Virus record (IMG/VR): IMGVR_UViG_3300026088_000016
Span: 8,251 to 72,250 of that record
DNA length: 64,000 bases
Origin: a virus
Lineage: Duplodnaviria; Caudoviricetes
Reading direction: 5' to 3' (one strand)
This document shows positions 3,211 through 39,233 of the stretch, piece after piece. The number at the start of each line of letters is the position of its first letter. Within the stretch, counting starts at the first letter, position 1. Made by a program: the position numbers and the translations under genes. Below the pieces are notes generated by a model, which made no database searches, was not told where the DNA came from, and saw only the letters and a list, made by a program, of their open reading frames with translations.

Positions 3211-4068
3211 ATGTCCAAGTCAGCTCTGCTTTGGGTCACTTACAAAAAGGACCTGCCGTTCTTCGAGGCCAGCCTACGCTCCTACCAAAAGTTTGCGTCA
3301 GGCTTTGCCTACGCAAAAGTCATCGTCCCCCTTGATGACGTCCCGGACTTCCAGAAAATCTGTGACCCCGCGGGCGTAATCGTCGCTGGAATCGGCGAAC
3401 CGCCGGGCAAGGGAATGCTCATGCACATGGCGATGCAGATGCTCGGGGAGACTCATTTTCCAGCCGACGCCGGCTTCATTTTTCATATCGACGCGGACTG
3501 TGTTTTCAATCAGCCCACAACCCCGCAGGATTATCTCCCCGGAGACAAACCCATCATCTCTTTCCGAAACTGGGACAAGCTCCTGTCCCGGCCGGTGGAG
3601 CAGGATGAAGTGCAGACGTTCATGGGATTCACCGGGCGCACCATCGACTTCAACCGCGGCGCGTATCTCTGGAAGTTTGCGGCCGACTTCGCACTCGGAT
3701 TCGCGTCGCAGCGGCAGACCATGACCCAGATGCCCATCGTGCATCGGCGGGAGACCTACGCGCGGGCGCGGGCAATTATCCAGCGCCGGTTCAACACCGA
3801 CATCATCTCGCACGTTCTCCAAGGGCGGAACGAGTGGCCGCAGACGTTCTGCGAGTTCGAGACGCTCGGCACGGTGGCCCATCGTTATTTTCAGGACCGC
3901 TATCACTGGCATGAGCTCGACGTGCAGGGAACTTACCCGGTGCGGAACGTGACGCAGACGTGGTCGCACGGCGGACTCGACGCGACGGTCGAGCATGGCC
4001 GGCCACAAATCATTGCGGGGGTTCATCGTTCTCCGCGGGAATACTTCACCTCGCTGGGACTCCTATGA
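3211..4068 (+). CDS. GT-A-fold glycosyltransferase-like protein (paralog 1)
   Basis: FHIDADCVF DxD motif; N-terminal beta-alpha LLWVTY..DL; shares WSHGGLD with 4571-5398. Confidence 0.7.
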   Translation: MSKSALLWVTYKKDLPFFEASLRSYQKFASGFAYAKVIVPLDDVPDFQKICDPAGVIVAGIGEPPGKGMLMHMAMQMLGETHFPADAGFIFHIDADCVFNQPTTPQDYLPGDKPIISFRNWDKLLSRPVEQDEVQTFMGFTGRTIDFNRGAYLWKFAADFALGFASQRQTMTQMPIVHRRETYARARAIIQRRFNTDIISHVLQGRNEWPQTFCEFETLGTVAHRYFQDRYHWHELDVQGTYPVRNVTQTWSHGGLDATVEHGRPQIIAGVHRSPREYFTSLGLL

Positions 4069-4574
4069 ATGTGGTCCATAGCGTAAGCTTCCCTCGAAGC
4101 GGACACAGGTTCACCACGGAACTTTTGCAGGCTTACTTCGGGCCAGCGCTGGTGTATTCGGGAGAGCCCGCCCCGCCGGAGGCAAATTTCATCAAGCATC
4201 ACGACCAAGATGGCGCTCTGGAGGTTGACCCGAACGGACACTATCTGGTTCAGGTTCGCGACCCGTTCGACGCGGTCTGGTCGTGGTATAAGATGACGGT
4301 GGACCTCGACGGGATTCCGGACACCATTCAATCCTACCGCGGAATTTTCTTGGAGAAGCTGGACTATTGGACGGGGTTCATGCGGAAGTGGGTTCTCTCG
4401 GACCTTCCGAATCGGGTCATCGTGAAGTATTATGACCTTGTCACCCATCCGGCCAAATCCCTTCGTCGCGTCCTCCCGCTGTTCGGGGAATACCCGGACC
4501 GGGCCCGTGTAGAGAAGGCGGTGCGGGAAGTAGCGGTGATTGAACGTCGCACTCCAAATTTTTATTTGCAATGA
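4065..4574 (+). CDS. PAPS-dependent sulfotransferase
   Basis: 5'-PSB loop SFPRSG and 3'-PB motif VRDPFDAVWSW; ATGA overlap fixes start at 4065. Confidence 0.8.
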   Translation: MNVVHSVSFPRSGHRFTTELLQAYFGPALVYSGEPAPPEANFIKHHDQDGALEVDPNGHYLVQVRDPFDAVWSWYKMTVDLDGIPDTIQSYRGIFLEKLDYWTGFMRKWVLSDLPNRVIVKYYDLVTHPAKSLRRVLPLFGEYPDRARVEKAVREVAVIERRTPNFYLQ

Positions 4575-5398
4575 GCTCACACCAAATCCTTATCGCATCC
4601 TACGCGCGCGACTTCATCTGGCTCGAACCAAACCTGAAGTCGCTGCAAAAATTCTGCGTCGGCTTTCTCCCGCCGGTTATCTCGGTCGATGGTCAGGATT
4701 TCTTCGCCGCGAAGAAAATGGTGGACCGACTTTATCCGGGCGCGACGGTGGTCCAGAAGGACGGGCGCCGCGGGCAGGGATTCATGCGGGCGCAAATCTC
4801 CATGATGCAGGGCGACCTGCTTTGTCCGAACGCGGACTTCGTCTATCTCGTCGGCTCCGACTGCATCGCGTGGACCCGGTTCGCGCCGGAGACGTATCAA
4901 TACAACGGGAAGCCGGTGATGCTCTACAACTCCCGGAAGTATTTTGAGGACGCGCACGCGGGGCACCCGATTCAGTGGATGGACAGCACCGCGCAGATTC
5001 TCAAGTTCCCGGTCAACGGGGAATACATGCGCCGGCTCCCCATCGTTTACCCGAAGGAGCTTTTCAAGCCGGTCCGCGACCACGTCGCCGCGGTGAACGG
5101 GATGGGCTTCGAGGACTACATCTACAAGCGGAACTCGGAGGGCGGGCCCGTCTCGGAGAGCAACATTCTCGGAGCCTTTGCTTGGGAGAAGATGCGGAAC
5201 CTCTATCACTGGATGCACGCTGATGGGAACGAAGAGTATGCGAATTATCGCCGGGACTTTCCAGACCCGCTCATTCAGTTCTGGAGCCACGGCGGACTCG
5301 ACCGGCCGGCCGAGGCGTGCATGAACTACTCCCACGGAAACACGCACGGGAAATCCCCGCGGCAGGTGATGAAGGACATCCTCGGAAACGACTTGTAA
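4571..5398 (+). CDS. GT-A-fold glycosyltransferase-like protein (paralog 2)
   Basis: LVGSDCI at DxD position; colinear similarity to 3211-4068. Confidence 0.65.
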   Translation: MSSHQILIASYARDFIWLEPNLKSLQKFCVGFLPPVISVDGQDFFAAKKMVDRLYPGATVVQKDGRRGQGFMRAQISMMQGDLLCPNADFVYLVGSDCIAWTRFAPETYQYNGKPVMLYNSRKYFEDAHAGHPIQWMDSTAQILKFPVNGEYMRRLPIVYPKELFKPVRDHVAAVNGMGFEDYIYKRNSEGGPVSESNILGAFAWEKMRNLYHWMHADGNEEYANYRRDFPDPLIQFWSHGGLDRPAEACMNYSHGNTHGKSPRQVMKDILGNDL

Positions 5399-7308
5399 TG
5401 GCGCTCCCAAAAAATTCAGCGCAGCGACTTCTCGTCAACCGGGTCTCAGAACGGTTGCACTCCGATGACTACTTCGGGGCGGCGAAGATTTACGCGGAGT
5501 TCGTCCGCCAGTCCACGACGATTCTTCCGCCGGTAGAGACCAAGGAGCAGGCGACCATGATGCTCTCGACGCTCCTGCATTGGTGTCTTGAAAACAACGG
5601 ATACGAAGAAGCGGCGCAGCTACTCTGGGGCCCGACTCAATTTGACCCGCGGTCCGACGCGACTCAGCGGGTGTGGAAAGCGTTTGAAGAGTCCGACCTG
5701 TTCATGCTGATGGGCGCGGGCTCAATGTCGAAATCCTACTCGATGGGCGTGCGTCTTTTTCTGGAATGGATAAGAGACCCCGAGCACACGCACATCAAAG
5801 TCGGCGGTCCGAGTGAGAACCATCTCAAGGAAAATTTGTTCAACCATCTGGTTGCGCTCCATCGCCAGTCCACCATCCCGCTCCCGGGCAAAGCACAGGA
5901 CCTGTTCATCGGGCTCGACTCCAAGGCCCGTAAGGGTGCAATCTCCGGGGTAGTGATTCCGCTCGGGCAGAGTGGCGCCGGCCGGTTGCAGGGTGTGAAG
6001 CGCGTGAATCGGAAGAAGCCGCACCCCGTCTTCGGGAAGATGACGCGGCTGTTCATTTTTCTGGACGAAATCATCAACATCCCCGACGGCATCTGGCAGG
6101 ACTTGGACAACGCGATGTCCCAGATTGACGGCACGCACACCGCGAAGATTGGTGGCGCGTTCAACCCGACCGACCAGTCGAGTGAAGCGGCCAAACGCTG
6201 TGAGCCCGTCGAGGGCTGGGGCAACTTCGACCCCGAGACGCATTTCGATTGGATTTCTAAACGCGGATGGCGGGTGTGCCGGCTGGACGCAGCGCGTTGT
6301 GAGAATGTGCTCCAGAAGAAACAAATCTTCTCGGGGTTGCAGACGTTCGAGGGTTTGCAGGCGCTCATCCTGAACTCTGGCGGCACGGACTCGGCCGGCT
6401 ACTGGGTGATGGGCCGCGGATGTTTCCCGCCCTCTGGAACGTCGATGTCGATTATCCCGCAGGGGATGCTCAACGCCTTCAAAGCGGAAATCATCTGGTA
6501 TGATGAACCGTCCCCGGTCGGCTCGGTTGACTTGGCACTCGAAGGCTCTGACACCGCCATCTTCTACAAGGGCCGGTTTGGTCTGGCCACTGGTGTAATC
6601 TTCCCGCCGTCGCTCCAGTTCCCGAACGGGCAGACGGTCATGTTCAAGGACCATAAAGGAAACAAGCGGCCCCGGCCGGTGCTCCTCGCCGAGACAAAGC
6701 TGAAGCTTCCGCGCGGGGACACGGTGGACATGAAGAACGAGATTCGCCGGGTGGCCAATACTTTTTCCATCCGCCCCGACCGGCTCGCGGTGGACCGCAC
6801 CGGTAACGGCCAAGGCGTTTACGATTTGCTTCGGTTCGAGTGGGGCGAAGTGATTGGCGTGAACTACTCGGAGTCAGCCGGCGAGACGCGCATCATGGTG
6901 GAGGACCACGATACTCCAAAAGAATTGTATCTTCGTGTGGACAGCGAGCTCTGGTTCGCGACCAGAAAATTTCTGGAGTTCGGATACGTTTACGGCGCGG
7001 CCGGGCTTCCGACCGAGGAGTTGTTCCCGCAGCTCACCGGGCGCCAGTTCCGGATGCAGGGCAAGCGGGCGCGCGTGGAAAGTAAGCCAGACTACAAGTC
7101 CCGCAACGGTGGAAAATCTCCCGACGACGCGGACGGCTTCACGCTTTTGATTCACGCGGTCCGGAAGGCGTTTGGATTCATCCCCGGGATGTCGCCGGAG
7201 AACTCGACCGAGTCGAATCCAAACTTCGATGAGGACTACGGGGCCGACGTCCGAATCTCCGTGGACAACCGGTTTGAGGATTTGGATGGGCCGGACCCCA
7301 ACATGTAA
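5398..7308 (+). CDS. terL: terminase large subunit
   Basis: Deviant Walker A GAGSMSKS, Walker B FIFLDE, motif C AFNP, RNase H-like nuclease acidic motifs VDLALEGSD, VDRTG, SPDDAD. Confidence 0.88.
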   Translation: MALPKNSAQRLLVNRVSERLHSDDYFGAAKIYAEFVRQSTTILPPVETKEQATMMLSTLLHWCLENNGYEEAAQLLWGPTQFDPRSDATQRVWKAFEESDLFMLMGAGSMSKSYSMGVRLFLEWIRDPEHTHIKVGGPSENHLKENLFNHLVALHRQSTIPLPGKAQDLFIGLDSKARKGAISGVVIPLGQSGAGRLQGVKRVNRKKPHPVFGKMTRLFIFLDEIINIPDGIWQDLDNAMSQIDGTHTAKIGGAFNPTDQSSEAAKRCEPVEGWGNFDPETHFDWISKRGWRVCRLDAARCENVLQKKQIFSGLQTFEGLQALILNSGGTDSAGYWVMGRGCFPPSGTSMSIIPQGMLNAFKAEIIWYDEPSPVGSVDLALEGSDTAIFYKGRFGLATGVIFPPSLQFPNGQTVMFKDHKGNKRPRPVLLAETKLKLPRGDTVDMKNEIRRVANTFSIRPDRLAVDRTGNGQGVYDLLRFEWGEVIGVNYSESAGETRIMVEDHDTPKELYLRVDSELWFATRKFLEFGYVYGAAGLPTEELFPQLTGRQFRMQGKRARVESKPDYKSRNGGKSPDDADGFTLLIHAVRKAFGFIPGMSPENSTESNPNFDEDYGADVRISVDNRFEDLDGPDPNM

Positions 7309-10665: not shown

Positions 10666-12003
10666 ATGGCAGAAGCTACCACCACCACTGATAATCCTGT
10701 TGCCGATTTGGAAATAAACGGCGAAGGCGAACCGAAGACCGTGAGCAACCCCGATACGGAGTCTGCTCTCAATGACGCTCTACGCGCTGAAGGGTTCAAC
10801 CCCGACGGCTCCCCGTATGAAGCAAAACCGGCGGACATCACTCCGAAGGACAAGAAGGACGAGCCGGTTGTTCCCCCCGCGGCGACGGGCCCCACGGGTC
10901 CGACTGGAGTTTCCGCTGGAATCTCCGCAGGCGCGACTGGTGCCACTGGCGCCCCCGCGGCGACGGGTGCTCCGGCTGACGAATTCGACGCCATCCAGCT
11001 CCCTCCGCACACCAAGCCGAAGACCGATGAGTCCTTCACGAAAGTCAAGACTCTCGCCCGTCAGCGGATTGCTGAGATTGAAAAAGAGCGCGAAGCGCTC
11101 AAGACCAAGCTGGCCGAAGCTGAGAAGCTGGCCAAAGATGGTCTCCCGGTTGAAGCCAAGAAGGAACTCGAAGAGCTGCGGACCTTCCGCAAGCAGATGG
11201 ACGTGGAGGCGGACCCCGAGTTCAAGAAGTTTGACGCGACGGTTTCCTCGAACATTGAGGCGCTGTATTCCAAGCTCGCCGTGAGCGGATTCGAGAAGGC
11301 CACCATTGAGGAAATCAAGAAGATGGGCGGTCCCGCGGAAGTGAACTGGGACAAGCTCCTCGCCGACGGAAAGATTTCGTCCGGCCTGAAGCGCTTCATC
11401 GACGGCAAGCTTTTCGAGAACGATGACCTCGTCGAAAAGAAAAAGCAGGCGATTGATACCGCCAAGAAGAACGCCACGGAGTTTCTCCAAAAGCGCGAAG
11501 CCGAGGTAGCGAAGAGCGCTGACGCTTCTGCCACTGAAGTCCACGAGACGTGGACCAAGGAAATCATCCCCAAGATGGACTGGCTTCGCACGGAGAAAAT
11601 CGACGAGAAGATGACTCCGGAGAAGAAGGAAATCGCGGAGGCGCACAACAAGCTGGTGGCCGACATCGAGTCGGAAATCAAGGAAGCGCTTTCGGACAAC
11701 AGCCCGCGCATGAAGGCGATGTTGACCGCCGGCTACGCGCAGAGCCGAAAACTCCGCTGGGAATTCGACCGGTTGAAATCCGGTTCGGATGCGAAGATTG
11801 CCGCGCTGACCAAGGAGCGTGATGAAGCGAAGTCGCTTATCGAACGCATCAAGAAGGCGTCTCCCGGACGGGTGACAACTTCCGCGCCGCAGAACACGCC
11901 CGCGAAGAAAATCACGGCCTCGTCGCATCTCGCAGTTTCGACGGACCAGCACCTTGATAACCTCTTGGCCGAAGTCGAAGCCGAGAAGGCCGCGAGGGGC
12001 TAA
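10666..12003 (+). CDS. probable scaffolding protein
   Basis: Acidic disordered N-terminus, long K/E coiled coils, upstream of capsid gene. Confidence 0.65.
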   Translation: MAEATTTTDNPVADLEINGEGEPKTVSNPDTESALNDALRAEGFNPDGSPYEAKPADITPKDKKDEPVVPPAATGPTGPTGVSAGISAGATGATGAPAATGAPADEFDAIQLPPHTKPKTDESFTKVKTLARQRIAEIEKEREALKTKLAEAEKLAKDGLPVEAKKELEELRTFRKQMDVEADPEFKKFDATVSSNIEALYSKLAVSGFEKATIEEIKKMGGPAEVNWDKLLADGKISSGLKRFIDGKLFENDDLVEKKKQAIDTAKKNATEFLQKREAEVAKSADASATEVHETWTKEIIPKMDWLRTEKIDEKMTPEKKEIAEAHNKLVADIESEIKEALSDNSPRMKAMLTAGYAQSRKLRWEFDRLKSGSDAKIAALTKERDEAKSLIERIKKASPGRVTTSAPQNTPAKKITASSHLAVSTDQHLDNLLAEVEAEKAARG

Positions 12004-12821
12004 TGGAAATTCCCCCGGAGACCCTCCGGGAGGGCCGAAATGTTTTCGTTGCCCTCCCGTGGTATAAGTCTGCCTCGCCGCTGACGACCTTTTCTCTTCT
12101 GGCGATGGCAGACCGGACCCGCATGGCGTTCGGTCTTGGCTTCGGGGATGCGTTCATCGCGCACTCCCGGAACAAGCTGGCCACTCAATTCGTCAACTCC
12201 ACCTTGGAGTGGATGCTGATGGTGGACGACGACATGGTGTTGCCCTTCGGCGATGCCAACTGGTTCAACGGGACAACTCAGTTCAAGCTCGACGACAAGT
12301 TCGCCGGGCTGCACACCCTCAATCGACTCCTATCTCATGGAAAAACTCTGGTTGGCGCGCTGTATTTTGGTCGTTGGAAGGCGGGCCATCCAGTCTTTGC
12401 CGAGGGCAAGCACATGGAGAAACTACTCCGCTCAGGCGGTCCACGCGATGAAGTTCGCCCTACCCGGTGGGTTGGAACTGGCACTTGCCTTTTCCACCGC
12501 TCGGTTTTTCTGGACGTGGAGCGCGAGTTTCCTCAACTTAGCCGTGAGCAAAATTCGGGAACTGGTCAATGGTTCACCTCCTCCGAGCACGACCTCGACA
12601 AAGCCGTAGCGACCATCATTGAGCGCGGCGAGATTCAGGACATCAAGCAACTCCTGAAGGAACTCGAAGAGGCCCGGCGCCGTTCCGCGGTGAACTCGGT
12701 TCACGGAATCGGCGAGGACGTTCAGTTCTGCACCCGCGCAGTTCAGGCCGGGCACCAGCCGCACGTTGACCTTGGCCTTTGGTGTGGTCACGCCGGCAAC
12801 TGTATCTTCCCACTTCGATGA
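12003..12821 (+). CDS. GT2-like glycosyltransferase
   Basis: IAHSRNKL, LMVDDDMV (DxD), GTGTCLF, GEDVQFC, D...CGH. Confidence 0.8.
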   Translation: MEIPPETLREGRNVFVALPWYKSASPLTTFSLLAMADRTRMAFGLGFGDAFIAHSRNKLATQFVNSTLEWMLMVDDDMVLPFGDANWFNGTTQFKLDDKFAGLHTLNRLLSHGKTLVGALYFGRWKAGHPVFAEGKHMEKLLRSGGPRDEVRPTRWVGTGTCLFHRSVFLDVEREFPQLSREQNSGTGQWFTSSEHDLDKAVATIIERGEIQDIKQLLKELEEARRRSAVNSVHGIGEDVQFCTRAVQAGHQPHVDLGLWCGHAGNCIFPLR

Positions 12822-13555
12822 AAGCCGACCACCGAAAAATTCTGTTGGCTCTTCAGTTCTGGGACGGTGACAAGGCGCAGGCCATGCGCGTGGCCCGGCT
12901 CATCGCGGATTTGGAAACGCGCATGAGCGACCGCGCGGACTTTCTCTTCGTCTCCCGGTTCGACTGCCCGCATGACTTGGATACGATTGGTTACGTCGCG
13001 CGCAAGTTCAAAGTCCGGCACCATGTTTCGCGGAGGCGCGCGACCGGCTGGCCGTTTGGACCGAATGAACTTTGGTTCGAGACGATGCAGTATGCCTACG
13101 AGCACACCATCGACGACAAGCGTATTCCAGAATACAAAGCGGTGCTGACGTTCGAGGCGGACGCGCTCCCGCTCTGTCCAAACTGGATTCCAATGCTCTC
13201 GGATGCGTTCGACCAGAGTCAGCCGGCGTGCATCGTCGGCGCGCTCCTGAAGTATCCCGGGCTTCACGTCAACGGCAACGCTCTCTTTTCCTGCGAGCAG
13301 AATTTTTCTCACTGGATTTCCCGTCAGGTGACGGGCTGCACTCCACACGGCGGATGGGATTACGTGCTGGCGCCGCGGTTCAAAGAGTGGGGCTGGAAAG
13401 ACTGCGCGCTCATGCGCTCGTGGTGGAAAACCCCCACGCTCCAGCGGGAACAATTCGAGCAGCTCCAAGCCCAAGGCGTCGCATTTCTCCACGGCATCAA
13501 GGACGGCTCCGCGCTGGACATGGTCCGGGAGAAGTATCGGTTGACTTCCGTCTGA
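12818..13555 (+). CDS. GT-A-like glycosyltransferase candidate
   Basis: LTFEADALP (ExD at DxD position), HVNGNALF, GGWDY; ATGA-coupled to GT2. Confidence 0.55.
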   Translation: MKADHRKILLALQFWDGDKAQAMRVARLIADLETRMSDRADFLFVSRFDCPHDLDTIGYVARKFKVRHHVSRRRATGWPFGPNELWFETMQYAYEHTIDDKRIPEYKAVLTFEADALPLCPNWIPMLSDAFDQSQPACIVGALLKYPGLHVNGNALFSCEQNFSHWISRQVTGCTPHGGWDYVLAPRFKEWGWKDCALMRSWWKTPTLQREQFEQLQAQGVAFLHGIKDGSALDMVREKYRLTSV

Positions 13556-13717
13556 GGAAGTGGGAGACTGCTTTAGCGGGAAGGTTGGATAGACTACCTT
13601 CATCAGCGACGTGGATTAGTCTCCACTGAGCACCCGGCCACCGGGGATGAAATGGGCCGACCTCCGCTCGGTCGCGGTAGGAGCCCAATAAGCACCGAGC
13701 CGCGGCCACCAATTTAT

Positions 13718-13863
13718 GGCTGACGGGGAGGAAACGCGGTCCCTACTTCGCGAGCGGGGGCACGGATTTCTCGCCCGACGCTCCAAAGGCGAACGCTCTC
13801 TGCGACGGTGGAGAGAACGCTTAGGACTTCGGGAGAAGTGGGTTCGACTCCCACCGCCGGCCA
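13718..13863 (+). ncRNA. tRNA-like structured RNA with expanded body
   Basis: GGCTGACG/CGCCGGCC terminal stem, perfect T arm GTGGG-TTCGACT-CCCAC, internal helices, no canonical anticodon arm. Confidence 0.6.
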
Positions 13864-13876
13864 TTCTCTTTTCTTC

Positions 13877-13904
13877 TTGACGTTCGGTTTCTCCCCCGCA
13901 TATT
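13877..13904 (+). promoter_or_regulatory. promoter for major capsid gene
   Basis: TTGACG-16-CATATT; SD-like GAAAGG before ATG 14082. Confidence 0.55.
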
Positions 13905-14081
13905 GAAGGTGAGACTATTCCCACTGTCTCATGGGACGTTGGAGCCTAAAATCCCTCGGAGGCTCGCGAGGGTGCGGTAAGCCATAAGTGGCTTGTGTAA
14001 CGCCCGTTACACTTAAAACCGGGCATCAACGAAACCCCGAATTCGGCATCTTCGCCGGATTCCAATTAGAAAGGCCATCTT

Positions 14082-15353: not shown

Positions 15354-15379
15354 CCCACACTACCGGTTCGTAGGTAGCG

Positions 15380-15416
15380 GGCCGGGTTCCGTTGCAGAGC
15401 GGGACCCGGCCTTTTT
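15380..15416 (+). terminator. intrinsic terminator after capsid gene
   Basis: GGCCGGGTTCCG-8nt-CGGGACCCGGCC then TTTTT. Confidence 0.85.
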
Positions 15417-26479: not shown

Positions 26480-29400
26480 ATGCCCAACTCTGCCACATCG
26501 ACAGACCCCTTTGCGGGTCTGGAGGAAGTCAAAGCTCCGTCTTCGGCCGCTCCGGACGCATTCGCCGGACTCGAAGAGGTGAAGGCCCCGGAGGCGGACG
26601 CCTTCTCTGGCCTGAAGCCGGCGGACAATCTTGACTTGCAGGATGAGTCTTCACTTGCAGGAGACGACGCTTTTCGTCCCGCGCAGTTCATCGCAGAAAA
26701 TCCGGGTGTCGTCAATGAGCCGGACCGTTTCAAAAAGCTCATCAACGTCTATCGCCAGAAGCGGGTGACCGGTCTCAGCGCCGGCAAGGTTGCCGCGGCG
26801 GCGGTTCACGAAGCTCCCGGCGTCATCGCGAAGACAGTCAAGGGCGCAGGCCAGCTCATCAAGCGCGCGGTGGACATCGGTGTCCAGCCGGCCGCGAACG
26901 AAGTTCTCGGACTCGTCACCGGCACCAATATGGCGCCGCTCCGCGAGGAGACCCGCAAGGGACAACTCAAGGCAGCGGGTGAAATTGCCGCGGGCACTGA
27001 GCAAGCCGTCACAGGTCTCGCACAGCTCGGCGGGCAGGCCGCTCGAAAGCTTTTTGGCACCGCGCCGGACAAGCTTACGGACTCCGAGCTCTACGACCAG
27101 CTTCTGGTCGATTCCGAATTTCATAAGCAGACCAATCAGATTGCGCAGGGTAACAGTGACCTGTCGAAGTCGATTGGTCTCGACTCAGAGTTCCTGTCCA
27201 AGAACGGAGTCCAATTGGACCCGAAGGCGATTGAGAATCTCTCGCTGGTGGACCCGCTGACTCTGGTGGCGACCGCAGGTGTTTTCAAGGTGGTGGGGGT
27301 TGGAGGAAAAGTGATTGCTACCGCAGCGACCAAGCTGGGTGGAGAAGCAGTCATCAACGGTCTCAAGACGATTGCTGGAAAAAGTTTGCAAGCTGCCGGT
27401 CAGGTGGCCGCAGCGACCGGCAAGGTGATTCAGAAAGCTCCGCTCCGCACTCCAAGTGTGGCAGCGATTGGCGGAAGTCTGGCGACGGGGAATGTTCCCC
27501 ATGCAATCGCGGCGTCGGTTGTCCCCGCGGCGGTCCGCTTGGGCGGTCGCGCGCTCGAAGCCGGCGGACGAGTCGCGGCCGAAGTCGGTCAGGCGGCAGT
27601 TCCCGGGTTCATTGGTCCTCCGACCGCAGCAGCGGCGCGTCTCGCGCAGATTGCTGCCTCTCCGGCCGCTCAGGTGGTCAAAGGGGTGGCCAAGGGTGGC
27701 GCGGCTGGTGCGGCCCTCGCGGCTCCGTTAGCTCTCGCGGCCGACGAGAACCAGACGGCCGGCGCAATCCTCGGTGGTGGCGCAGCGCTTGGTGCAGTGG
27801 CCGGCGCGGCTCACGTTGGCGGAAAGATTGCCGGCAACGCCGTGGCCAACGTCGTGGCGAAGAAGTTTTTCGACCCGCACTCGATTCCTTTCGAGCCGGT
27901 TCAGTCCCCCGGCTACGGAGTGGACAAAGCATTGGATGCAACGCACGATGCGGCGATGCAGACCCTCTCAGCACCCGAGCAGAATGCTATCAATAATTTC
28001 CGGGAGGCTCTCCGCGCGCAAGGCGGCGAGATTTATGTGCAGGACCCGCAGGCTTATGCCGACCGGATTCGCCAAAGTCTTCAGGCTGAGAACGGCGGCG
28101 GTCCGCTGACCCCGGAGCAGGAAGCGAAAGCGACGGCGTATGCCGACACGCACGCGGAGTTCGACGGGTTCATCACGGACTCGAACGGCCAGCCGCGGCG
28201 AGTGGTCTTCCTCAACGGCGGCGCCAAGGGTCTCCCCCATGACGCGGGGCATCTTTTTCAGTCGCTGTTGGACCCACAGAAGCAGACGCAGCTTCGGGAT
28301 TCAGTTTTCCAGTCATACACGCCGGAGCAACTGAATGAGTTCGGCAAAGCCTACACGGACCGTCTCGGGGACCCGGAGTATTTCAACAAGCTCGGGGAAG
28401 AGGCCGGACGCAATAAGATTGCGGACGAAATCATCGCCGAGAACTTCAGCCAGTTGTTCGGGAATACCCCGCTCTCGGAGCTCAAGGGGCCCAAGTCATT
28501 CTTGGAGACCCTCGGACGCACTGCGGCGGAAGCCGGAGAATCCCTCGGTCTTGACCTGACTGGTGGTCGGACGACCCCAGACCTTCAGGCGACTCCTTCC
28601 ATCCGTCTCCAGAACGTGCTTCGGAATGCGTCCCGGGAAGTCCTGAACGCGCCGGCCACAAAGGAGAAGCTCACACTGACCAAGGCGACCGCGCCGGAGA
28701 AAGTTCCGACGGCCGCAGAGATTCCGGCAGTGTCCGCTAAACCAGACGCTATTCAACCGCCAGTGTCTGCTAAACCAGACGTTGCCGCAGAACGCGCGAA
28801 GGTCACGGGCATTGCTGAAGCCCGCGAGCTCACCAAGGATAACCCGGAGGCTTCGGCCACGGTGGATACCATTTCCAAGTCGATGGAGGCTGGGAATCCC
28901 GCGCTCAAGATTGAGCATCGGGGGATTACTTCCCAAGCCCCCGTCGGCCCACGCGGAGAAGCTCGTGGTCCTCGCCGCGGCACGCAGGAAGCCGGCTATG
29001 CCGAGTTGGAGCGGCTCCAGATTGAGAATCGTGCGAACGCGCCGGAGTCGGTCGTCTCGGTCCATGAGAAAACTTTTGTGCCGGTGCGTTGGGTGAATCA
29101 AGGTGGCAAGGCCACGCTCATCGCGATGTCGATGGACAAGATTCTCGGCAACATCCGGAAGATTACCGAAGAGGCCGCAGCGAAGAAGGCCGACAAACTC
29201 ATCCCCTACGAAAGCGTTGGTGGAGAACTCACGGAGAAGGGTTGGAATGAAGCTCTCGCCGATGTTAAGACGTATGCGGAAAATCAGTCTAATGGGTATC
29301 GTGGTGATGGGGCTCGTCTTGTCCGACCTAGCGATGAGGCCGGTGTCAGCATCCCGGCGGAGAATCCGAACTACACTCCGAAAACTCTCGGGGAAGCTCA

Positions 29401-32400
29401 GGCGAATTTCGCGAATCTCGTCCAAGGAATCGCACCGCCACAGACCGCGCGAATGGTCAAAGGACAAGTTCCCGGCAACGTCAAGGCGCAGCTCGTCGCA
29501 GAGGTAAACCAACGGGTCCCGCAGCCGGTCGCGAAGATTTCCCCCAAGGACATCACCAAGCAGACTTTTGGAAAGCCGTTCGAGGGACGCACCGTCAAAG
29601 AGACGAACCCCCTCCGCAATGAACTTTCGAGCAAGGGCGTCAACGTCCGGGCGCTGACCGAAGCGACGGAACGATTCGCCGCGCAAGACATCGCAAGTGT
29701 TGGCGAGGCCGCGCCAGAAGCGCAGATGAAGGCGCCCGTGACTGATGTCATCCGCGGGGGATTCCTCCCGGCCGGAAAGACGGTGGAACAGTTTGGGAAA
29801 GAAATTATCAGCCAGAGCGGAGATGACTGGCTGAAGACGGCGCAAAGTTTCAAAGGTGGGCTCACTCCAGAGGCGTATCGCCTTGGGCTCGGTCTCACTG
29901 ATGTCGCGGACGTGAAACGTCTGACGGACCTTCGAGATGAAGCGTTGGCGAAATATCGGGAAGAGATTACGGCGGGACGCGCGGAGGAGGCTTATCCGTG
30001 GACCACCAAGGCTCAATTTTTCTCGGAGGCCCTCGGAGCGGCAACAGATACTGGTAGCGCGGCCAATCCTCGGGTTGGATGGCGTCGAGTCATGCCAGAT
30101 GCGAAGGCCCCATTCCCGCAAGGGAAGGCCGAGCCCCGGCTCGAACAACTCCGCCCGGAACGTCTTTTCCTCCCCGCGGCGGACATTGAGAAAAGTTTGG
30201 ACCCAATCAAGCGCGCGGCGATTCGGACCCGTAGTGGAAAGATTTACGAGGGCTCGTGGCACGGTGAAGCCTACACCGAGTTTGCCGACGCGATTGCGCG
30301 CGGTGAAGCGAACGAGAAGCTCCCGCCGGGATTCTCCAGTCTGACTGACTTGCTGGACTCCGTCATGTCCGGCGACCTTGCTGCCGAAGGCGTGAAAGAT
30401 TTTGTCGAGGACGGTTTCGTGACCGAGAAGGGAAAGTTCCTGAATCGGGCGCAGGCGCTCGACCACGCGGAGAAGATTGGACAGTTGAAGGCTGGAGCTC
30501 CAGCAGAGAAGAACTCTGCGCGTGGCGAAGGCGTTCTGGAGTCGGCTGAGTTTGAGAACGAGCGGTCATTTCTCCCCAAGGGTGACAAGCCGATTCGTGA
30601 CCTTGCGTCCGAATACGCGAAGACTGCAAAGATTCCCTACACCCCGCACGAGACCTACACTCCGCTGAATCCCAAGCTCGGGGAGAAGCTGGCGGATTTC
30701 TACGACTCGGCGAAGTCAGACCCGACTGACCCGGCGGTCCAGAAGTCGTATCGCGCGCTGGCTGACGAGACCCTCGCACAATACAAGGCGATGACGGACG
30801 CGGGCTACACCATCGAACCGTTCAAGGGCGAAGGCGAGCCTTACAAGAACAGCGATGAGGCGATTGCGGACATCCGGGACAACAAGCACCTCTATTTTCT
30901 CCAGACCGAGAAGACGTATGGGGCGGAAGGCGAGGCGAAGACCTCGGCTAATCCCATGCTCGCGGACTCTGGAATCAAGATTGATGGACAGAAGCTTTTG
31001 GTGAACGACGTGTTCCGCGCCGTCCACGACTTTTTTGGTCACGGTAAAGAGGGCTATCAGTTTGGCCCCCGCGGCGAGTTCAACGCTTGGCGCGCTCACT
31101 CCGAGATGTTCTCTCCTGAAGCGCAGGGCGCGCTTGCCGCAGAGACGCTGGCCCAGAACTCATGGGTGAACTTCGGTAAGCAGGTCCGCGGAAAAGAACT
31201 CGCACTTAAGGACCGCCCGTTCGCAGAGCAGAAGGCCATCATCGTCCCGGATGAACTCATTCAGGAAGCGAAGAACCGGAATGCGGGGGAGATGAAGTTT
31301 CTCCCCTCGAAGGAGCCCCGGGCGATTAAGGACGCCGCGGTCCAAGACCCGGAGACGGGGAAGATTTACACAGGCCGGTATCACCTCGCGGCGTTCGATG
31401 AAGCCTCGAAAGCCGGGTTGCCGGAGAAGACACTCGAAAGGCTGGTTGATGGATTCGTCACTAATGAGGGGGAATTTCTAAATCGGGAGGATTCTTTTTC
31501 CCGGGCGGTGGAGTTGAAGCAAATTACCCCGGATGATTACCGGGAGCAGATTCAGGCATACAAGGACGAAGGAGTGCCAGTGGCGGACGTGCCGTCATCC
31601 TTGGAGAACACTCTCTTCAACGATGTCCGTTCTGACCAACGAAAAGCGTTCTTGCCCCGCAAGAAAGCCGGCGGCAAGGTGAATCCCGAAGACCTCACCA
31701 AGCGTGATGAGCAAGGTCGCCCGCTCACGCGCGGTGGACTCGTGGATTACACGAAGCTCTACGCGGAGAAGTCGAAGAAGGCCAAGGAGCAGGAAGCGGC
31801 CGACCTAGCGTCGATTCCGAAGAAATACTCGGTGTCGGAGAAGATGGAACCGCCCAAGGGTTCTCTCACCGGATGGGTGTTGCCGAATGATGAGTTCGTT
31901 CCACTTGATACTGCATATCACGAAGATTTTCTCGCTAAGAACTCGGAGCAGTTGAACAAGGAGTTCGGAACGAATCTGTCTTCAAAAGCGAACCCGGAGG
32001 AACGTCTGGGTGCGCTCCAAAAAGGTTTCGTCCGCGTGCGTTACACGCCAAATGACGGAACCGTCCGCATTGAAGCTGCCGCGAACAACTGGACTCCCAA
32101 AGTCCAGAAATCAATTCTCGACAAGCTGGAAGAGCATGAGAATTCTATCGCCCGCGTTTATGCGGCCGTGATGGATTCCAAGGGCAATGTTGTGGACTCG
32201 GTCTCAGAACGGGTGGCAGAGCTGGACGGGCCTGAACGAATCGCGGCGATGAAAGACGCGCTGTCGCAGCTCAAAGGCGCAACGACGGAACGCCCGAAAG
32301 GTGTTGGTCCGACCGACATCCAGCGCGCACGCGCGATGGGCCAGACCCGGGAGCCACAGTTTCTTCCGAAGCCCGGCACCAAAGAGTTCAACGACTACGT

Positions 32401-33754
32401 GGACGCGCGCATCAAGGACAGCAAGAAGTTTCCGGAAGCGCTCCCACTCGAATTTCGCAAGGACGAGTCCGGGGATTACCGCACCGGATTCAATGGCGAC
32501 GTTCTGCCCGTCTCCAAGGACTACGACCTCGCTGGCACTCCGCTCGCGAAGAAGTCCAAAGGCAAGACGCCAGAGCAGACCGAAGACAATTTCACCAGCG
32601 CACTCGCCAAGGGGCTGGAGAAGGAATACACGGAGGCCAAGAAGAACCCGTCCATCAAAGCTGGAGAGACGTGGTATAGCGTCTGCCGTGAGAAACTTCA
32701 GGCCCTTCTCGGTGAGGACACCAAGATGTTCGCGGAGCTTCTCGGCGCAACGTCGCCGCAGACCAACGTCGATGCCAACTTCGCCTTCGCACTCGACGCC
32801 TACAATCAATTCAAGCGGGGCGCCTACGACAAGATGCTGGAGAAGTATCGCGAGGGCAAAACCAAATTCAAGACGGGTGACTTGGATGAGTTCATTTCTG
32901 AGACCGGCAAGAAAGGCGCAAAAGCGACCTACGACGCCTTCATGTATTGGTGGGCCGAGAAGAACAATCTCGTTCCCACTCAGAGCAACGGGAAACGATT
33001 CGGGATGAACTCCCGCGCGGTCCTTCGTGTGCTCGACGGCTCATGGCTGGAGAACGTGAAAGGTCCCAAGACCCCGAACTTCACCGGCAACCTGACGGGC
33101 TCATCCTTCGAGGCGACAATCGACGTCTGGGCCATGCGGACCCTGCACCGGCTGGCGAATGAGGGCAACCCCAAACGCTGGCGGATTCAATCCGGCAACG
33201 AGACCGGGGTGACGGACTCCGACTTTTTCACCGGGCAGAAAGCTTTTCGTAAGGCGGCGGAAAAACTGGGTCTCCAGCCGGATGCGCTTCAGGCGATTCT
33301 CTGGTTCAACGAGAAGGACCTTTGGGAGAAGAACGGCTGGACGTCATCGGTCGGAAAGAAGAAATCCGACTACAACGTGTTGCTCCAAGCGACCGAGAAG
33401 ACGCCTGAGGGGTTGCTGAAGAAAGTTGACAAACAGCTCTCTTTCGACGACCGTTCTTTCTTGCCTATGAAAAAGAAAGACTACAAAACTGCGGTGGAGA
33501 AGGCCGGATTTGAATTTCGAGACTGGCTCGACATCCTGCCTAACGGACATGTTCTGTCGAACCCAGTTCCTCTGGTTCAGGTCCCCCGGGATGCCAAACC
33601 CCCGCCGGGATTCACTTTTCAGTGGTCCACGATTTTCTACGTCGAGGGTCACGACCATCCTAAAGGGACAAAGATTGTCGCAATGGTTGCGGCGCCGGCA
33701 GAGAAGTCGGTTGACAAGTCGGTGTCTCCCGGCGATATTGAAGGGAAAAAGTAA
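26480..33754 (+). CDS. giant modular ejection / polyvalent protein (2424 aa)
   Basis: N-terminal FAGLEE repeats, Ala/Gly-rich segment, HDAGH...EIIAE peptidase-like region, seven FLP-delimited C-terminal modules. Confidence 0.8.
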   Translation: MPNSATSTDPFAGLEEVKAPSSAAPDAFAGLEEVKAPEADAFSGLKPADNLDLQDESSLAGDDAFRPAQFIAENPGVVNEPDRFKKLINVYRQKRVTGLSAGKVAAAAVHEAPGVIAKTVKGAGQLIKRAVDIGVQPAANEVLGLVTGTNMAPLREETRKGQLKAAGEIAAGTEQAVTGLAQLGGQAARKLFGTAPDKLTDSELYDQLLVDSEFHKQTNQIAQGNSDLSKSIGLDSEFLSKNGVQLDPKAIENLSLVDPLTLVATAGVFKVVGVGGKVIATAATKLGGEAVINGLKTIAGKSLQAAGQVAAATGKVIQKAPLRTPSVAAIGGSLATGNVPHAIAASVVPAAVRLGGRALEAGGRVAAEVGQAAVPGFIGPPTAAAARLAQIAASPAAQVVKGVAKGGAAGAALAAPLALAADENQTAGAILGGGAALGAVAGAAHVGGKIAGNAVANVVAKKFFDPHSIPFEPVQSPGYGVDKALDATHDAAMQTLSAPEQNAINNFREALRAQGGEIYVQDPQAYADRIRQSLQAENGGGPLTPEQEAKATAYADTHAEFDGFITDSNGQPRRVVFLNGGAKGLPHDAGHLFQSLLDPQKQTQLRDSVFQSYTPEQLNEFGKAYTDRLGDPEYFNKLGEEAGRNKIADEIIAENFSQLFGNTPLSELKGPKSFLETLGRTAAEAGESLGLDLTGGRTTPDLQATPSIRLQNVLRNASREVLNAPATKEKLTLTKATAPEKVPTAAEIPAVSAKPDAIQPPVSAKPDVAAERAKVTGIAEARELTKDNPEASATVDTISKSMEAGNPALKIEHRGITSQAPVGPRGEARGPRRGTQEAGYAELERLQIENRANAPESVVSVHEKTFVPVRWVNQGGKATLIAMSMDKILGNIRKITEEAAAKKADKLIPYESVGGELTEKGWNEALADVKTYAENQSNGYRGDGARLVRPSDEAGVSIPAENPNYTPKTLGEAQANFANLVQGIAPPQTARMVKGQVPGNVKAQLVAEVNQRVPQPVAKISPKDITKQTFGKPFEGRTVKETNPLRNELSSKGVNVRALTEATERFAAQDIASVGEAAPEAQMKAPVTDVIRGGFLPAGKTVEQFGKEIISQSGDDWLKTAQSFKGGLTPEAYRLGLGLTDVADVKRLTDLRDEALAKYREEITAGRAEEAYPWTTKAQFFSEALGAATDTGSAANPRVGWRRVMPDAKAPFPQGKAEPRLEQLRPERLFLPAADIEKSLDPIKRAAIRTRSGKIYEGSWHGEAYTEFADAIARGEANEKLPPGFSSLTDLLDSVMSGDLAAEGVKDFVEDGFVTEKGKFLNRAQALDHAEKIGQLKAGAPAEKNSARGEGVLESAEFENERSFLPKGDKPIRDLASEYAKTAKIPYTPHETYTPLNPKLGEKLADFYDSAKSDPTDPAVQKSYRALADETLAQYKAMTDAGYTIEPFKGEGEPYKNSDEAIADIRDNKHLYFLQTEKTYGAEGEAKTSANPMLADSGIKIDGQKLLVNDVFRAVHDFFGHGKEGYQFGPRGEFNAWRAHSEMFSPEAQGALAAETLAQNSWVNFGKQVRGKELALKDRPFAEQKAIIVPDELIQEAKNRNAGEMKFLPSKEPRAIKDAAVQDPETGKIYTGRYHLAAFDEASKAGLPEKTLERLVDGFVTNEGEFLNREDSFSRAVELKQITPDDYREQIQAYKDEGVPVADVPSSLENTLFNDVRSDQRKAFLPRKKAGGKVNPEDLTKRDEQGRPLTRGGLVDYTKLYAEKSKKAKEQEAADLASIPKKYSVSEKMEPPKGSLTGWVLPNDEFVPLDTAYHEDFLAKNSEQLNKEFGTNLSSKANPEERLGALQKGFVRVRYTPNDGTVRIEAAANNWTPKVQKSILDKLEEHENSIARVYAAVMDSKGNVVDSVSERVAELDGPERIAAMKDALSQLKGATTERPKGVGPTDIQRARAMGQTREPQFLPKPGTKEFNDYVDARIKDSKKFPEALPLEFRKDESGDYRTGFNGDVLPVSKDYDLAGTPLAKKSKGKTPEQTEDNFTSALAKGLEKEYTEAKKNPSIKAGETWYSVCREKLQALLGEDTKMFAELLGATSPQTNVDANFAFALDAYNQFKRGAYDKMLEKYREGKTKFKTGDLDEFISETGKKGAKATYDAFMYWWAEKNNLVPTQSNGKRFGMNSRAVLRVLDGSWLENVKGPKTPNFTGNLTGSSFEATIDVWAMRTLHRLANEGNPKRWRIQSGNETGVTDSDFFTGQKAFRKAAEKLGLQPDALQAILWFNEKDLWEKNGWTSSVGKKKSDYNVLLQATEKTPEGLLKKVDKQLSFDDRSFLPMKKKDYKTAVEKAGFEFRDWLDILPNGHVLSNPVPLVQVPRDAKPPPGFTFQWSTIFYVEGHDHPKGTKIVAMVAAPAEKSVDKSVSPGDIEGKK
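33711..33739 (+). promoter_or_regulatory. promoter inside 3' end of giant gene
   Basis: TTGACA-17-GATATT upstream of ATG 33758. Confidence 0.5.

Positions 33755-34750: not shown

Positions 34751-34751
<1 letters not shown>
34539..34751 (+). CDS. hypothetical protein
   Basis: ORF with TAATG coupling to fibre gene. Confidence 0.5.
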
Positions 34752-36448
<1,697 letters not shown>

Positions 36449-37703
36449 GCTCTTACTGGACCAGCCGTCTCCCCAGAGGAGCGCGAGCCGGTCGAAGTAA
36501 GCCTGATACTGGTGCTTCACGGTCCTAATCGAATACTTCTCAACAGCTCGACTCCTGATGTAAAAGGGGTCGAGCTTTTTTACGTCCTCGATGGCTTGCA
36601 TGAACTCACCAAGGTAGTGACAACGAAAACCCGTGCGGCCTTGCTCCACCGTCTCGGTGAAACCGCCCCACGGCGTTGAGATGACGGGTGTGCCGCAAAG
36701 CTGGGCTTCGACCGCAACTTGGTTGAACGGTTCGATGTAAACCGTCGGAGTCAGGACCGCCCGGGCGCGCGACATCCAGTCGTTGCGCGTCTTCATGTCG
36801 AGCGCGCCGAGATACTCGGCCCCGTGAGTCACCAAAGACTTGTCACCGTGCCCGATGATTTTCAACGGAACCCCCGCGGCATCCGCAGCCCGGCAGGCAA
36901 TCTCCAGACCTTTTCTGGGCGTGAGCCGGCCAACGTAGAGCAAAAAATCTCCCCGCTCATTCCAGTGCCGAAAAGGAAACTCAAATTCGTCGTAGAAGCA
37001 GGGGATGACGGTGTCGAAGAATCGTCCGTTCGGGATTTGCTGTGCGCCGTAGCAGACGTGCTTCCACGCTTCGCTCTCGAACACCCGGTAGGGACCAAAA
37101 GAGCCGTTGTAGCCGATGGAATACTCGACGAACATCAAGTCCGGATGCGCGTCAGCGACGGGCTTCTGGGAGGAGCCTCCGATGCTGCAAATGAAGTCCC
37201 GCGGCTGCTTGCGCTTGGCGATTTCCTTGGCCATGCGCGCGTTGGCGAGCTGCCACAACGGGGACCACTCTTCCACGTAGGCATATTGGTAGGGCGTCGG
37301 CTCCGGCTCACCCTTCGCATTTTTTGTGCTGTTGAGCAGGGTCTCCTGTTCTTCCTTTCGGACGACTGTCACCAGCTCATCGCAGGGCGCCTCATTCTGT
37401 TCGGAGGCATAGAGGATGACTTCGTGGCCGAGCTGCTTCAGCAACTCGGCAAAGCGGATGGTGGCGACGCAGAACCCGCAGAGCGAATACGCGCGGGTGG
37501 TCTGGACGTTAGGAAGGGCCAGCAGGTGGATTCGATATTTGTTCATTGGAGTCCAATCGCGAGCCCGAAGACCCGGATTCCGTATTGCCAGTGGAAGAAG
37601 GCCCAGCTTCCGGGACCGACATGACGGGGGCAGCAATAGGCGATTTCAATCCAGCCGATGTGGATGGTCCAGACCGGACCATATTTCTGGTTCAATCGAA
37701 GTT

Positions 37704-37940
37704 TCACGAGCGCACCCCCAAGTCTCGAAGGTCCTCGGCCGAATAGACCCCCGTCAAGGTGTTGGGTGCGTCGTATTCGGTCTCGAAGTCCACGGCGACG
37801 GTCCGGGGCTTCTTCACCCTCCGGCCTTTCTCCGCGTCCTTGGCGTGACCGGTTGGATTGTTGAGTTGCTTGGCGAGACGGCGGGCTTTGGCCACTTCCA
37901 TCACGCTGTTCATTCGCTGGATTGTTGCTAAGTTAAACAT
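37704..37940 (-). CDS. hypothetical protein
   Basis: ORF preceded by TTGCAA-16-GATAGT-5nt-ATG. Confidence 0.55.
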   Translation of the reverse strand: MFNLATIQRMNSVMEVAKARRLAKQLNNPTGHAKDAEKGRRVKKPRTVAVDFETEYDAPNTLTGVYSAEDLRDLGVRS

Positions 37941-38259
37941 AGCTCACTATCGCACGGTCCGCGTGGATTGCAACCCTCTTTCGACGAATTTTTTCAAACC
38001 GGGAGATGAGCCCGGGGTCTTGGGATTCCGTTACGGACTCCCACAGTTCCTCGAACTGAAAACCCTCTTTGTCAGAGAGTTCCGTGCGGAGCAGAACGCA
38101 GTCCAAGCAGGTCTTGAACCTCATCGGCTCGCCGTCCCAGACTCCAGAGATGCGCTCATACTTTTCCCCGGGACGAATCTCTCCGCGGCACTCGCAACAA
38201 CGGTGCCGCTTCCGGGCGACCGGCGTCACGGTGCTACAACATTCAGGTCCGTCAATCAT
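37933..38259 (-). CDS. phage Zn-finger protein
   Basis: [17 protein letters not shown]...CLDC. Confidence 0.7.
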
Positions 38260-39233
38260 GGGGCGTGTCTCTGTTCGTGATACGCCAGTTCAAAATCAGC
38301 CTTCACCATCATGTTCACCAGCTCGGGGAAGCTCACCGACGGCTTCCATTTCAGAATCCGCTTGGCGCGTGTCGGGTCTCCGAGCAGCAGGTCAACCTCC
38401 GTTGGACGGAGCAGGCGCTGGTCGAATTCCACAAACTCTTTCCAGTTCATGTCCATCGCCGAAAAGGCCAGCGACAGAAACTCCCGGACAGTGTGAGTCT
38501 CACCTGTGGCAATCACGTAGTCACCCGGCTTTTCCTGTTGCAGCATCAGGTGCATCGCCTTGACGTAGTCGCCGGCAAAGCCCCAGTCACGCTTCGCGTC
38601 CAGATTGCCGAGCACGAGCTTGTGCTGGAGCCCATACCAGATTCGGCCGACGGCGCGGGTGATTTTCCGCGTCACGAAGGTCTCTCCTCGGCGGGGAGAC
38701 TCGTGGTTGAAAAGAACCCCGTTGCTCGCGTGGAGCCCGTAGGCTTCGCGGTAGTTGACGGTGGAGTGATGGGCCAGCACCTTGGCGCACCCATACGGAC
38801 TGCGCGGGTAGAAGGGCGTCGTGATTTTCTGCGGCGTCTCCACCACCTTGCCGAACATCTCGGACGAGCCGGCCTGATAGTAGCGCGCGTCCGGGCAACA
38901 GGTCCGGACCAGCTCCAGCAACCGGACGGCGCCAAGCCCGGTGGCGTCGGACGTGTAAACCGGCTGGTCGAAGCTCACCCGGACGTGTGACTGCGCGGCG
39001 AGGTTGTAAATCTCGTGTGGCTTCACCTTCAGTAGCACTTGCGCCATCGCGGTGACGTCGAGCAGGTCGCAGTAGTGAAGAACGACTCGTTTGAAAATGT
39101 GGTCGATTCGCGACGTGTTGAAAGATGACGAGCGCCGGATGGTGCCGTGGACCTGATAGCCGAGTTTGAGCAGGTGCTCGGCGAGGTAAGAGCCGTCTTG
39201 GCCCGTGATTCCAGTGATGAGCGCTTTTTTCAT
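38256..39233 (-). CDS. gmd: GDP-mannose 4,6-dehydratase
   Basis: [51 protein letters not shown]. Confidence 0.97.

Follow-up and report, generated by a model that had tools for sequence, protein, structure and literature searches.

What does a tailed phage modify when its genome carries five glycosyltransferase (GT)-like genes, a sulfotransferase gene and a gene for GDP-mannose 4,6-dehydratase (gmd)? The question is raised by a stretch of 64,000 nucleotides, hereafter the window, which comprises bases 8251-72250 of the 72,250-bp IMG/VR virus record IMGVR_UViG_3300026088_000016. A first-pass annotation made from the letters alone had read these genes as a pathway for a sulfated deoxyhexose glycan on Thr-rich collagen-like fibres of the virion. 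Through comparison of the enzyme structures and of the locus among relatives, we came to a different emphasis: by analogy with mycobacteriophages, the phage probably encodes a soluble cytoplasmic system that glycosylates its own virion, with sulfated and possibly phosphodiester-linked 6-deoxyhexose tailoring, a reading that we hold with modest confidence. A cytoplasmic target of the late stage fits the pathway best, given a core GT pair coupled to the scaffold gene, mobile accessory genes and the absence of membrane machinery, whereas the proposed link to the collagen fibres found no specific support.

A conserved glycosyltransferase pair in the head module

The first 150 bp of the record are repeated at its end, so we take it as a complete phage genome of 72,250 bp (GC about 59%). 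Morphogenesis genes fill a single block of the plus strand between about 3.2 and 36.4 kb: the terminase, a portal-sized gene, a small open reading frame (ORF), a coiled-coil scaffold-like gene, a capsid candidate and genes for collagen-like fibres, for other fibres and spikes and for a protein of 2424 aa. Replication genes occupy the minus strand from 64 down to 36.4 kb; they encode a family A polymerase, a DUF5906 primase/helicase, a DUF2800 nuclease, an SNF2 helicase, a sigma factor and a ligase, and the block terminates with gmd and a GT4 gene. As the first-pass annotation had stated, four of the GT-like genes lie within the morphogenesis block, where they form overlapping series with the genes for the large terminase (TerL) and the scaffold: the junctions joining the gene at 3211, the sulfotransferase, the gene at 4571 and TerL, and those joining the scaffold with the genes at 12003 and 12818, are all start/stop overlaps of 1 or 4 nt (TAATG or ATGA). 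TerL (5398-7308, +), which begins the head module and is conserved in 64 relatives, gave a weak match to phrog_5713 (E 4.7e-4), and the scaffold-like coiled-coil protein (10666-12003, +), present in 75 of 80 loci, was assigned by position and composition.

The four plus-strand GT-like genes had no informative library matches and were therefore examined by structure. All five GT-like genes proved to have glycosyltransferase folds, in keeping with the original call, but those at 3211 and 4571 may be sugar-phosphate transferases. The first member of the core pair, GTC (12003-12821, +), is a GT2-like GT-A glycosyltransferase whose ESM Atlas model aligns (TM 0.69) with a viral cluster composed entirely (100%) of PF00535 members and whose D75xD77 and G237-E238-D239 motifs are invariant in 24-63 homologues; it had no Pfam or NCBIfam match at E <= 0.1, and a profile search found no GT in the PDB. 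The second, GTD (12818-13555, +), is a GT-A glycosyltransferase nearest to the GT31 type, modelled by AF2 at pLDDT 96 and with E113xD115 and H150 invariant. It had no Pfam, NCBIfam or informative PHROG match. Comparison by Foldseek and VIA placed it closest to CHSY3/CHPF, B3GalT6, C1GalT1 and Fringe (Z 14.8-16.7), the matches grading unbroken to Z 13 (GT14, GT8 and others). Its structural neighbours are enriched in GT-A enzymes acting on O-glycans and proteins (GT31, XylT1, GlyE, COLGALT1), without a clear break from other GT-A enzymes. Alignments of the proteins encoded at 3211, 4571, 12003 and 12818 and of the capsid candidate, searched as profiles against PDB sequences, returned nothing or chance matches to porin and vimentin, and hhalign found no relationship among the GT families and the island families of 249, 256 and 230 aa.

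A scan of IMG/VR with the family of GTD identified at least 124 relatives, of which 80 were fetched for locus comparison. The clade, to which more than 225 protein clusters and at least 124 IMG/VR contigs belong, is environmentally widespread and uncultured, and many of its members measure 70-76 kb and have terminal repeats. Among 50,697 cultured-phage records, none matched GTC, GTD or the capsid candidate (by tblastn for GTC and GTD). The gene order in the relatives is fixed: terminase, portal, small ORF, scaffold, GTC, GTD, a variable gap, the capsid candidate and collagen protein 1. GTD was found in 80/80 loci and GTC in 78/80, both exceptions starting inside GTD at a contig end. Both are therefore core genes of the clade.

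A variable island between the pair and the capsid candidate

The gap from GTD to the capsid candidate measures 169-4377 nt across relatives. Locus comparison and a promoter scan identified the interval at 13556-14081 of the window as the empty form of this island, containing a promoter-like site. Where the gap is filled, it holds gmd genes 55-66% identical to that of the window, Fcl-like GDP-fucose synthases (E 5.8e-117) and other short-chain dehydrogenases/reductases (SDRs) including a PseB-like UDP-GlcNAc dehydratase. It also holds an enzyme of the Sulfotransfer_3 type with similarity to the fucose sulfotransferase NoeE (E 1.2e-17; 64 bits vs an equivalog cut-off of 500), homologues of the compact sulfotransferase of the window and three unassigned families. 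Endo VII homing-type nuclease genes occur in 13 islands and hint at the means of mobilisation. The gap is empty in the window and in its eight closest relatives, where Stealth-like genes, with or without a sulfotransferase, lie upstream of the terminase. At least one sugar-nucleotide SDR was present in 16 of the 20 near-complete relatives.

The accessory sugar and sulfate gene families thus move among three islands of the same genomes. Because they shuttle between islands around an invariant GT pair, we take them to serve one system. Since homologues of the window-type sulfotransferase and gmd occupy the slot after GTD in relatives, the dispersed accessory genes of the window likewise appear to belong functionally with the core pair. 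Some relatives carry an Fcl-like synthase without gmd and the window carries gmd only, as if each phage contributed half of the GDP-fucose pathway.

Putative tailoring enzymes

Two paralogs near the start of the morphogenesis block, StlA (3211-4068, +) and StlB (4571-5398, +), share 24% identity (BLASTP E 3e-18). StlB overlaps TerL by TAATG and has lost the first Asp of its DxD motif (GSD). Neither had a Pfam, NCBIfam or informative PHROG match. The AF2 model of StlA, built on 39 of the 82 homologues found, has a GT-A-superfamily fold at pLDDT 96. When the top 1000 PDB chains from Foldseek were aligned with VIA, eight Stealth-family entries led at Z 15.8-16.6 with 222-239 residues aligned, namely human, zebrafish and fly GlcNAc-1-phosphotransferase (GNPTAB) and Mycobacterium tuberculosis CpsY, and Z dropped to 11.7 for the best ordinary GT-A matches (GT6 and hyaluronan synthase). 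Stealth enzymes move a sugar-1-phosphate rather than a sugar; their mechanism needs an Asp that binds the metal, a His acting as base and an Arg that is strictly conserved (Asp408/His956/Arg986; PMC9388126). The Asp serves Mg, and the Arg, together with an Asn, the beta-phosphate. The StlA family has the motif HxDxD (H92, D94, D96), in which D96, together with R187, is invariant, and H72, H92 and H253 are near-invariant. The Stealth CR1-CR4 Pfam models matched neither the window proteins (E <= 0.1) nor 39 family members (E <= 1), and DUF6492 was weakly matched by 8/39 members. StlA and StlB thus appear to resemble Stealth enzymes at the level of the modelled fold without being demonstrable members of that family, and they may be sugar-phosphate rather than sugar transferases, making phosphodiester-linked sugars.

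Between the two lies the predicted sulfotransferase, and here, as with gmd, the earlier call was borne out. It is a compact enzyme of 169 aa of the type dependent on 3'-phosphoadenosine 5'-phosphosulfate (PAPS), encoded at 4065-4574 (+) with ATGA overlaps to both neighbours; its start is at 4065, overlapping the upstream stop, and not inside 3960. It matches PF00685 above the cut-off (26 bits vs 22), at profile positions 88-193 only, and has no NCBIfam match. Its sequence contains FPRSGHRF near the N-terminus and VRDPFDAVWS, which we take to be the PAPS-binding loops (the 5'-phosphosulfate-binding, 5'-PSB, and 3'-phosphate-binding, 3'-PB, motifs respectively). Homologues with 28-37% identity sit after the GTD homologue or before TerL in 13 relatives. 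A supply of PAPS by the phage itself was considered and rejected: no APS kinase is encoded in its genome, so PAPS must come from the host.

The gmd gene (38256-39233, -) is a clear TIGR01472 equivalog (490 bits vs a cut-off of 415, over positions 1-341 of the 342 of the model) and matches PF16363 at E 3.5e-130; its best PDB matches are GDP-mannose 4,6-dehydratases (E 1e-107 to 1e-128; 1n7g, E 1.4e-128). The translation shows the SDR Rossmann GxxGxxG motif ([10 protein letters not shown]) and the catalytic YxxxK as YGCAK, and it is the sole SDR of the genome (a single PF01370 match). Gmd opens the synthesis of GDP-6-deoxyhexoses, its product being GDP-4-keto-6-deoxymannose. No Fcl, Rmd or aminotransferase accompanies it in the window, so a host enzyme is needed to complete the deoxyhexose. 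At the distal end of the same leftward operon lies a GT4 (GT-B) glycosyltransferase (36380-37546, -), with matches to PF13692 (E 1.8e-14) and PF00534 (E 2.4e-13) at 54.7 and 50.4 bits vs cut-offs of 27 and 26.4, a full-length match to phrog_3408 (E 2.9e-62) and 33% identity to a GT of Synechococcus myoviruses.

Candidate acceptors

Two kinds of virion protein next to the core pair could accept the glycan. The gene at 14082-15353 (+), the best conserved of the head module (52-85% identity), encodes the putative major capsid protein. This protein ends in a conserved tail rich in Cys and Ser, which in most relatives reads RC.ADLGL..C-(2-4 residues)-SSS[YF][ST]G.D.F..VGVC. The promoter-like site before it (13877-13904, +) consists of TTGACG, 16 nt and CATATT, and a terminator with a 15-bp stem and a T-run directly follows it (15379-15412, +), as though the gene were a transcription unit with a boost of its own. 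Its family numbers 257 representative clusters (E <= 0.001) and has conserved cysteines, among them an RC...C pair close to the C-terminus. No capsid family of Pfam, PHROG or the PDB could be linked to it by sequence, 35 diverse members scanned against PHROG received no capsid label, and a search of four distant capsid proteins against the viral contigs found nothing.

The three G-X-Y collagen proteins described by the first-pass annotation, two of them dominated by GPT, are indeed present. Collagen-like fibre protein 1 (15665-16789, +) directly follows the capsid gene and has 20 mixed triplets that are Thr-rich at Y; it matches Pfam Collagen (E 1.4e-7) and phrog tail-fibre families, and it is core, being present in 51/52 loci that reach far enough. 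Protein 2 (17006-18208, +), also matched by Pfam Collagen, has GPT in 13/24 triplets, and protein 3 (34751-36448, +) has 28 GPT triplets and a Gly-rich C-terminal domain. The annotation had proposed to look for co-occurrence of the enzymes with such fibres among relatives. The core GT pair and collagen protein 1 do co-occur, but as collagen protein 1, the capsid candidate, GTC and GTD are all core, this cannot separate a fibre acceptor from a capsid acceptor. The Ser-rich tail of the capsid candidate may be as good an acceptor as the Thr-rich collagen tracts.

The proposed glycosylation system and its alternatives

The coupling of GTC and GTD to the scaffold gene and the hot spot abutting the capsid candidate fit the modification of a head-associated protein during assembly. 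In the system that we envisage, GTC (GT2-like, of the inverting type) and GTD (GT31-like) would be made together with the scaffold protein and would build a basal O-glycan on a head-associated protein while the head assembles. Lineage-specific accessory enzymes would then tailor this glycan, in the present phage gmd, GT4, the PAPS-dependent sulfotransferase and the two Stealth-like enzymes, which may add sugar-1-phosphate through phosphodiester bonds. A host enzyme would convert the gmd product to fucose or rhamnose, and the outcome would be an anionic and variable glycan coat. All seven enzymes lack hydrophobic segments and are thus soluble, and a hydropathy scan of all ORFs of at least 60 aa in the whole genome found no multi-pass membrane protein on a coding frame. 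We infer the virion as the target, with the Ser-rich tail of the capsid candidate and the neighbouring collagen fibre as candidate acceptors, and the sugars named and the phosphotransferase chemistry are likewise predictions. A more specific version for the whole clade of about 72-kb phages is offered tentatively, as we think it rather doubtful: an anionic head glycan based on fucose or another 6-deoxyhexose, to which the compact PAPS sulfotransferase would add sulfate and which small soluble Stealth-like enzymes, acting as sugar-1-phosphate transferases, would extend through phosphodiester-linked sugars.

Several observations weigh against modification of the virion. The clade is known from genes alone, without a cultured relative, and the capsid label of the gene at 14082 comes from position, conservation, promoter and terminator, with no match in sequence or fold. 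Five divergent relatives that lack the Ser-rich capsid tail retain both GT-A genes. The gmd and GT4 genes are not part of the late operon but close the replication operon on the other strand. A sulfated deoxyhexose, as first annotated, is suggested by the gmd and Fcl-like genes of relatives, by the NoeE-like type of sulfotransferase among them and by the sharing of an island with an Fcl-like gene by 11/11 island sulfotransferases (base rate 29/42), but the window lacks Fcl and Rmd, and that association is suggestive only, because the loci are related and the counts are not independent of phylogeny.

The main alternative is that the enzymes remodel a host surface polysaccharide (capsule, exopolysaccharide or O-antigen) by acting, on the inner side of the membrane, on the lipid-linked intermediates of the host, with lysogenic conversion, superinfection exclusion or protection of progeny from sticking to cell debris as the outcome; we judge it fairly unlikely. 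Bacterial loci for capsule or O-antigen typically combine GT2, GT4, Stealth, gmd and sulfotransferase genes, and Stealth enzymes act as capsule polymerases (PMC5974469, PMC10668966). Peripheral cytoplasmic GTs of polysaccharide synthesis are likewise soluble, and just upstream of the Stl cassette lie a lipoprotein-like gene and, 2 kb away, a serine recombinase, so that the cassette may serve lysogenic conversion. Against this stand the position of the core pair in the head operon, translationally coupled to the scaffold gene, which would be an unusual site for conversion genes, and the shuttling of the relatives' accessory genes into the slot adjoining the capsid gene. Moreover, the genome encodes no Gtr-, Wzx- or Wzy-type membrane protein, flippase, polymerase, initiating transferase or exporter. 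That the acceptor is instead the Thr at Y of the GPT tracts of the fibres, carrying a sulfated deoxyhexose glycan in the manner of BclA, we consider unlikely. GPT dominates two of the fibres, collagen protein 1 follows the capsid gene in 51/52 relatives, and the neighbours of GTD include the protein and O-glycan transferases XylT1, C1GalT1, Fringe and COLGALT1. The GPT collagen of Bacillus BclA carries Thr-linked glycans, and in Riftia collagen the triple helix gains stability from glycosylated Thr. However, the fibres are inseparable from the capsid as acceptor, all being core, phages that lack GTs commonly have GPT-type collagen fibres as well (the fibres match many phrog tail-fibre families), the neighbours of GTD form a continuum of generic GT-A enzymes, and the window has no second enzyme of the deoxyhexose pathway.

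Two further explanations do without a virion glycan. The genes could be unrelated auxiliary metabolic genes with separate targets, either small molecules or host proteins, and no single glycan system. Their location at three separate sites on both strands would suit this, as would the GT4, whose nearest solved relatives include the small-molecule enzyme tetrahydrobiopterin glucosyltransferase and whose phage homologues occur in unrelated cyanomyoviruses. The entry and exit of the same families at one slot beside the core GT pair across relatives points to a shared function, and makes this explanation improbable. Glycosylation of phage DNA against restriction appears more improbable still, even though DNA-hypermodifying GT-A and GT-B enzymes of phages are described as widespread in passages of PMC12619734 (on Pyle 2024) and a gene resembling nucleoside deoxyribosyltransferases is present at 52191-52688. 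In agreement with the first-pass annotation, which had seen no base-hydroxymethylase, the thymidylate-synthase-like hydroxymethylase family PF00303 was not found in the complete genome at E <= 0.1, and none was among 20 right-arm proteins scanned; DNA glycosylation was rejected on this ground. The GT-A-type genes also lie in the head module and not in a nucleotide-metabolism or replication module, and we know of no case of GDP-fucose-type donors and sulfation on DNA, which counts against it as well.

Other features of the genome

A GNAT acetyltransferase lies among the fibre genes (22975-23394, +; PF00583 at E 2e-6, above the cut-off, and phrog_1249) and possibly takes part in glycan or protein tailoring. 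The protein encoded after it (23396-24727, +) contains a poly-Gly stretch and ends in a Peptidase_S74 intramolecular chaperone domain of the kind usual in tailspikes and fibres. The 2424-aa protein of the virion module (26480-33754, +) has DUF7178 as its sole match, at residues 2039-2276.

The serine recombinase (322-1089, +; 255 aa) has a Resolvase domain (PF00239, E 5e-26) and a partial Recombinase domain; it is kept just upstream of the terminase in 19/31 relatives and lies 2 kb upstream of the Stl cassette. Adjoining it, the lipoprotein-like ORF (2051-2515, +) has a signal peptide, a Cys and weak HEAT-repeat matches. A tRNA gene at 2775-2846 (+), flanked by tRNA-Met (2583-2660) and tRNA-Trp (2851-2923), received no ARAGORN assignment; it scores 49.5 bits with the Rfam tRNA model and has a four-base anticodon 'ttga' in its loop, and could be a suppressor-type tRNA for frameshifts or stops, or a Gln tRNA with an odd loop. 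In the replication module, the small protein at 52191-52688 (-) matches DUF7768, DUF1937 and DUF4406, which are nucleoside 2-deoxyribosyltransferase-like folds. A host call from the labels of metagenome-assembled genomes was also attempted and rejected: the only genome matches were short clade contigs binned as Peribacteraceae, Rhodoferax, Microbacteriaceae, Chthoniobacter and Nitrospirota, and as these belong to five unrelated phyla the labels are almost certainly binning noise and not usable as host calls.

Significance and comparison with known systems

If the virion is the target, glycan coats would count as a general and diversifying trait of the phage virion that bears on adsorption, stability and evasion of defence, and sulfation and phosphoglycosylation would join the known chemistry of the phage particle. 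The small soluble enzymes, including protein O-glycosyltransferases, a 169-aa sulfotransferase and 280-aa Stealth-like enzymes, would then be of biotechnological interest. Should the anionic glycan also prove true, this virion would be the first of any bacterial virus to be sulfated or phospho-glycosylated, and the Stl proteins would represent a new minimal branch of the Stealth superfamily acting on proteins.

Among the systems with which the individual enzymes can be compared, the Stealth family (GNPTAB, M. tuberculosis CpsY and the Neisseria capsule polymerases) gives the best fold match to StlA and shares with the phage proteins an Asp metal motif, an invariant Arg and near-invariant His, but the phage proteins are much smaller, soluble, phage-encoded and without a CR1-CR4 Pfam match. 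Rhizobial sulfotransferases of the NoeE/NodH type carry out PAPS-dependent sulfation of a sugar, which may be fucosyl, and the NoeE-matching enzyme of a relative adjoins Fcl-like genes; the sulfotransferase of the window is of a different, compact 169-aa type. Bacillus BclA and Mimivirus collagen (L230) are further cases in which GPT-rich collagen-like filaments at the surface of a particle go together with glycosylation genes of one genome. The present phage differs in having neither a rhamnose/anthrose operon nor a lysyl hydroxylase/GT, and nothing observed connects its enzymes with the collagen tracts.

As whole systems, a chlorovirus and the mycobacteriophages come nearest. Chlorovirus PBCV-1 encodes GMD/GMER and cytoplasmic GTs that place fucose- and rhamnose-containing glycans on its major capsid protein independently of the secretory route. 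It thus resembles the present phage in having a virus-encoded gmd and cytoplasmic GTs, but it is a giant virus of eukaryotes whose glycans are N-linked and whose GTs are unrelated, and the phage lacks the second enzyme of the pathway. We know of no case of sulfation in PBCV-1. For phages, virion glycosylation has to our knowledge been shown experimentally only in mycobacteriophages, where it alters antibody recognition. Passages of PMC12619734 (on Freeman 2023) and of PMC11256854 place the glycans at the C-termini of capsid and tail-tube subunits. According to these, soluble GTs encoded by the phages (Che8, Rita, Corndog, Myrna) are thought to O-glycosylate the C-terminal tails of their own capsid and tail proteins, forming a glycan shield. 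The present phage, seen through its genes alone, similarly has a GT pair beside a capsid candidate with a Ser-rich C-terminal tail. It differs in that GTC and GTD have no sequence homology to the mycobacteriophage enzymes, are core and lie between scaffold and capsid, and in its additional sulfotransferase, Stealth-like and GDP-sugar enzymes. Self-glycosylation by phages is therefore known in kind, and what appears to be new here is a core GT pair between scaffold and capsid, together with a tailoring island, putative sulfation and Stealth-like enzymes.

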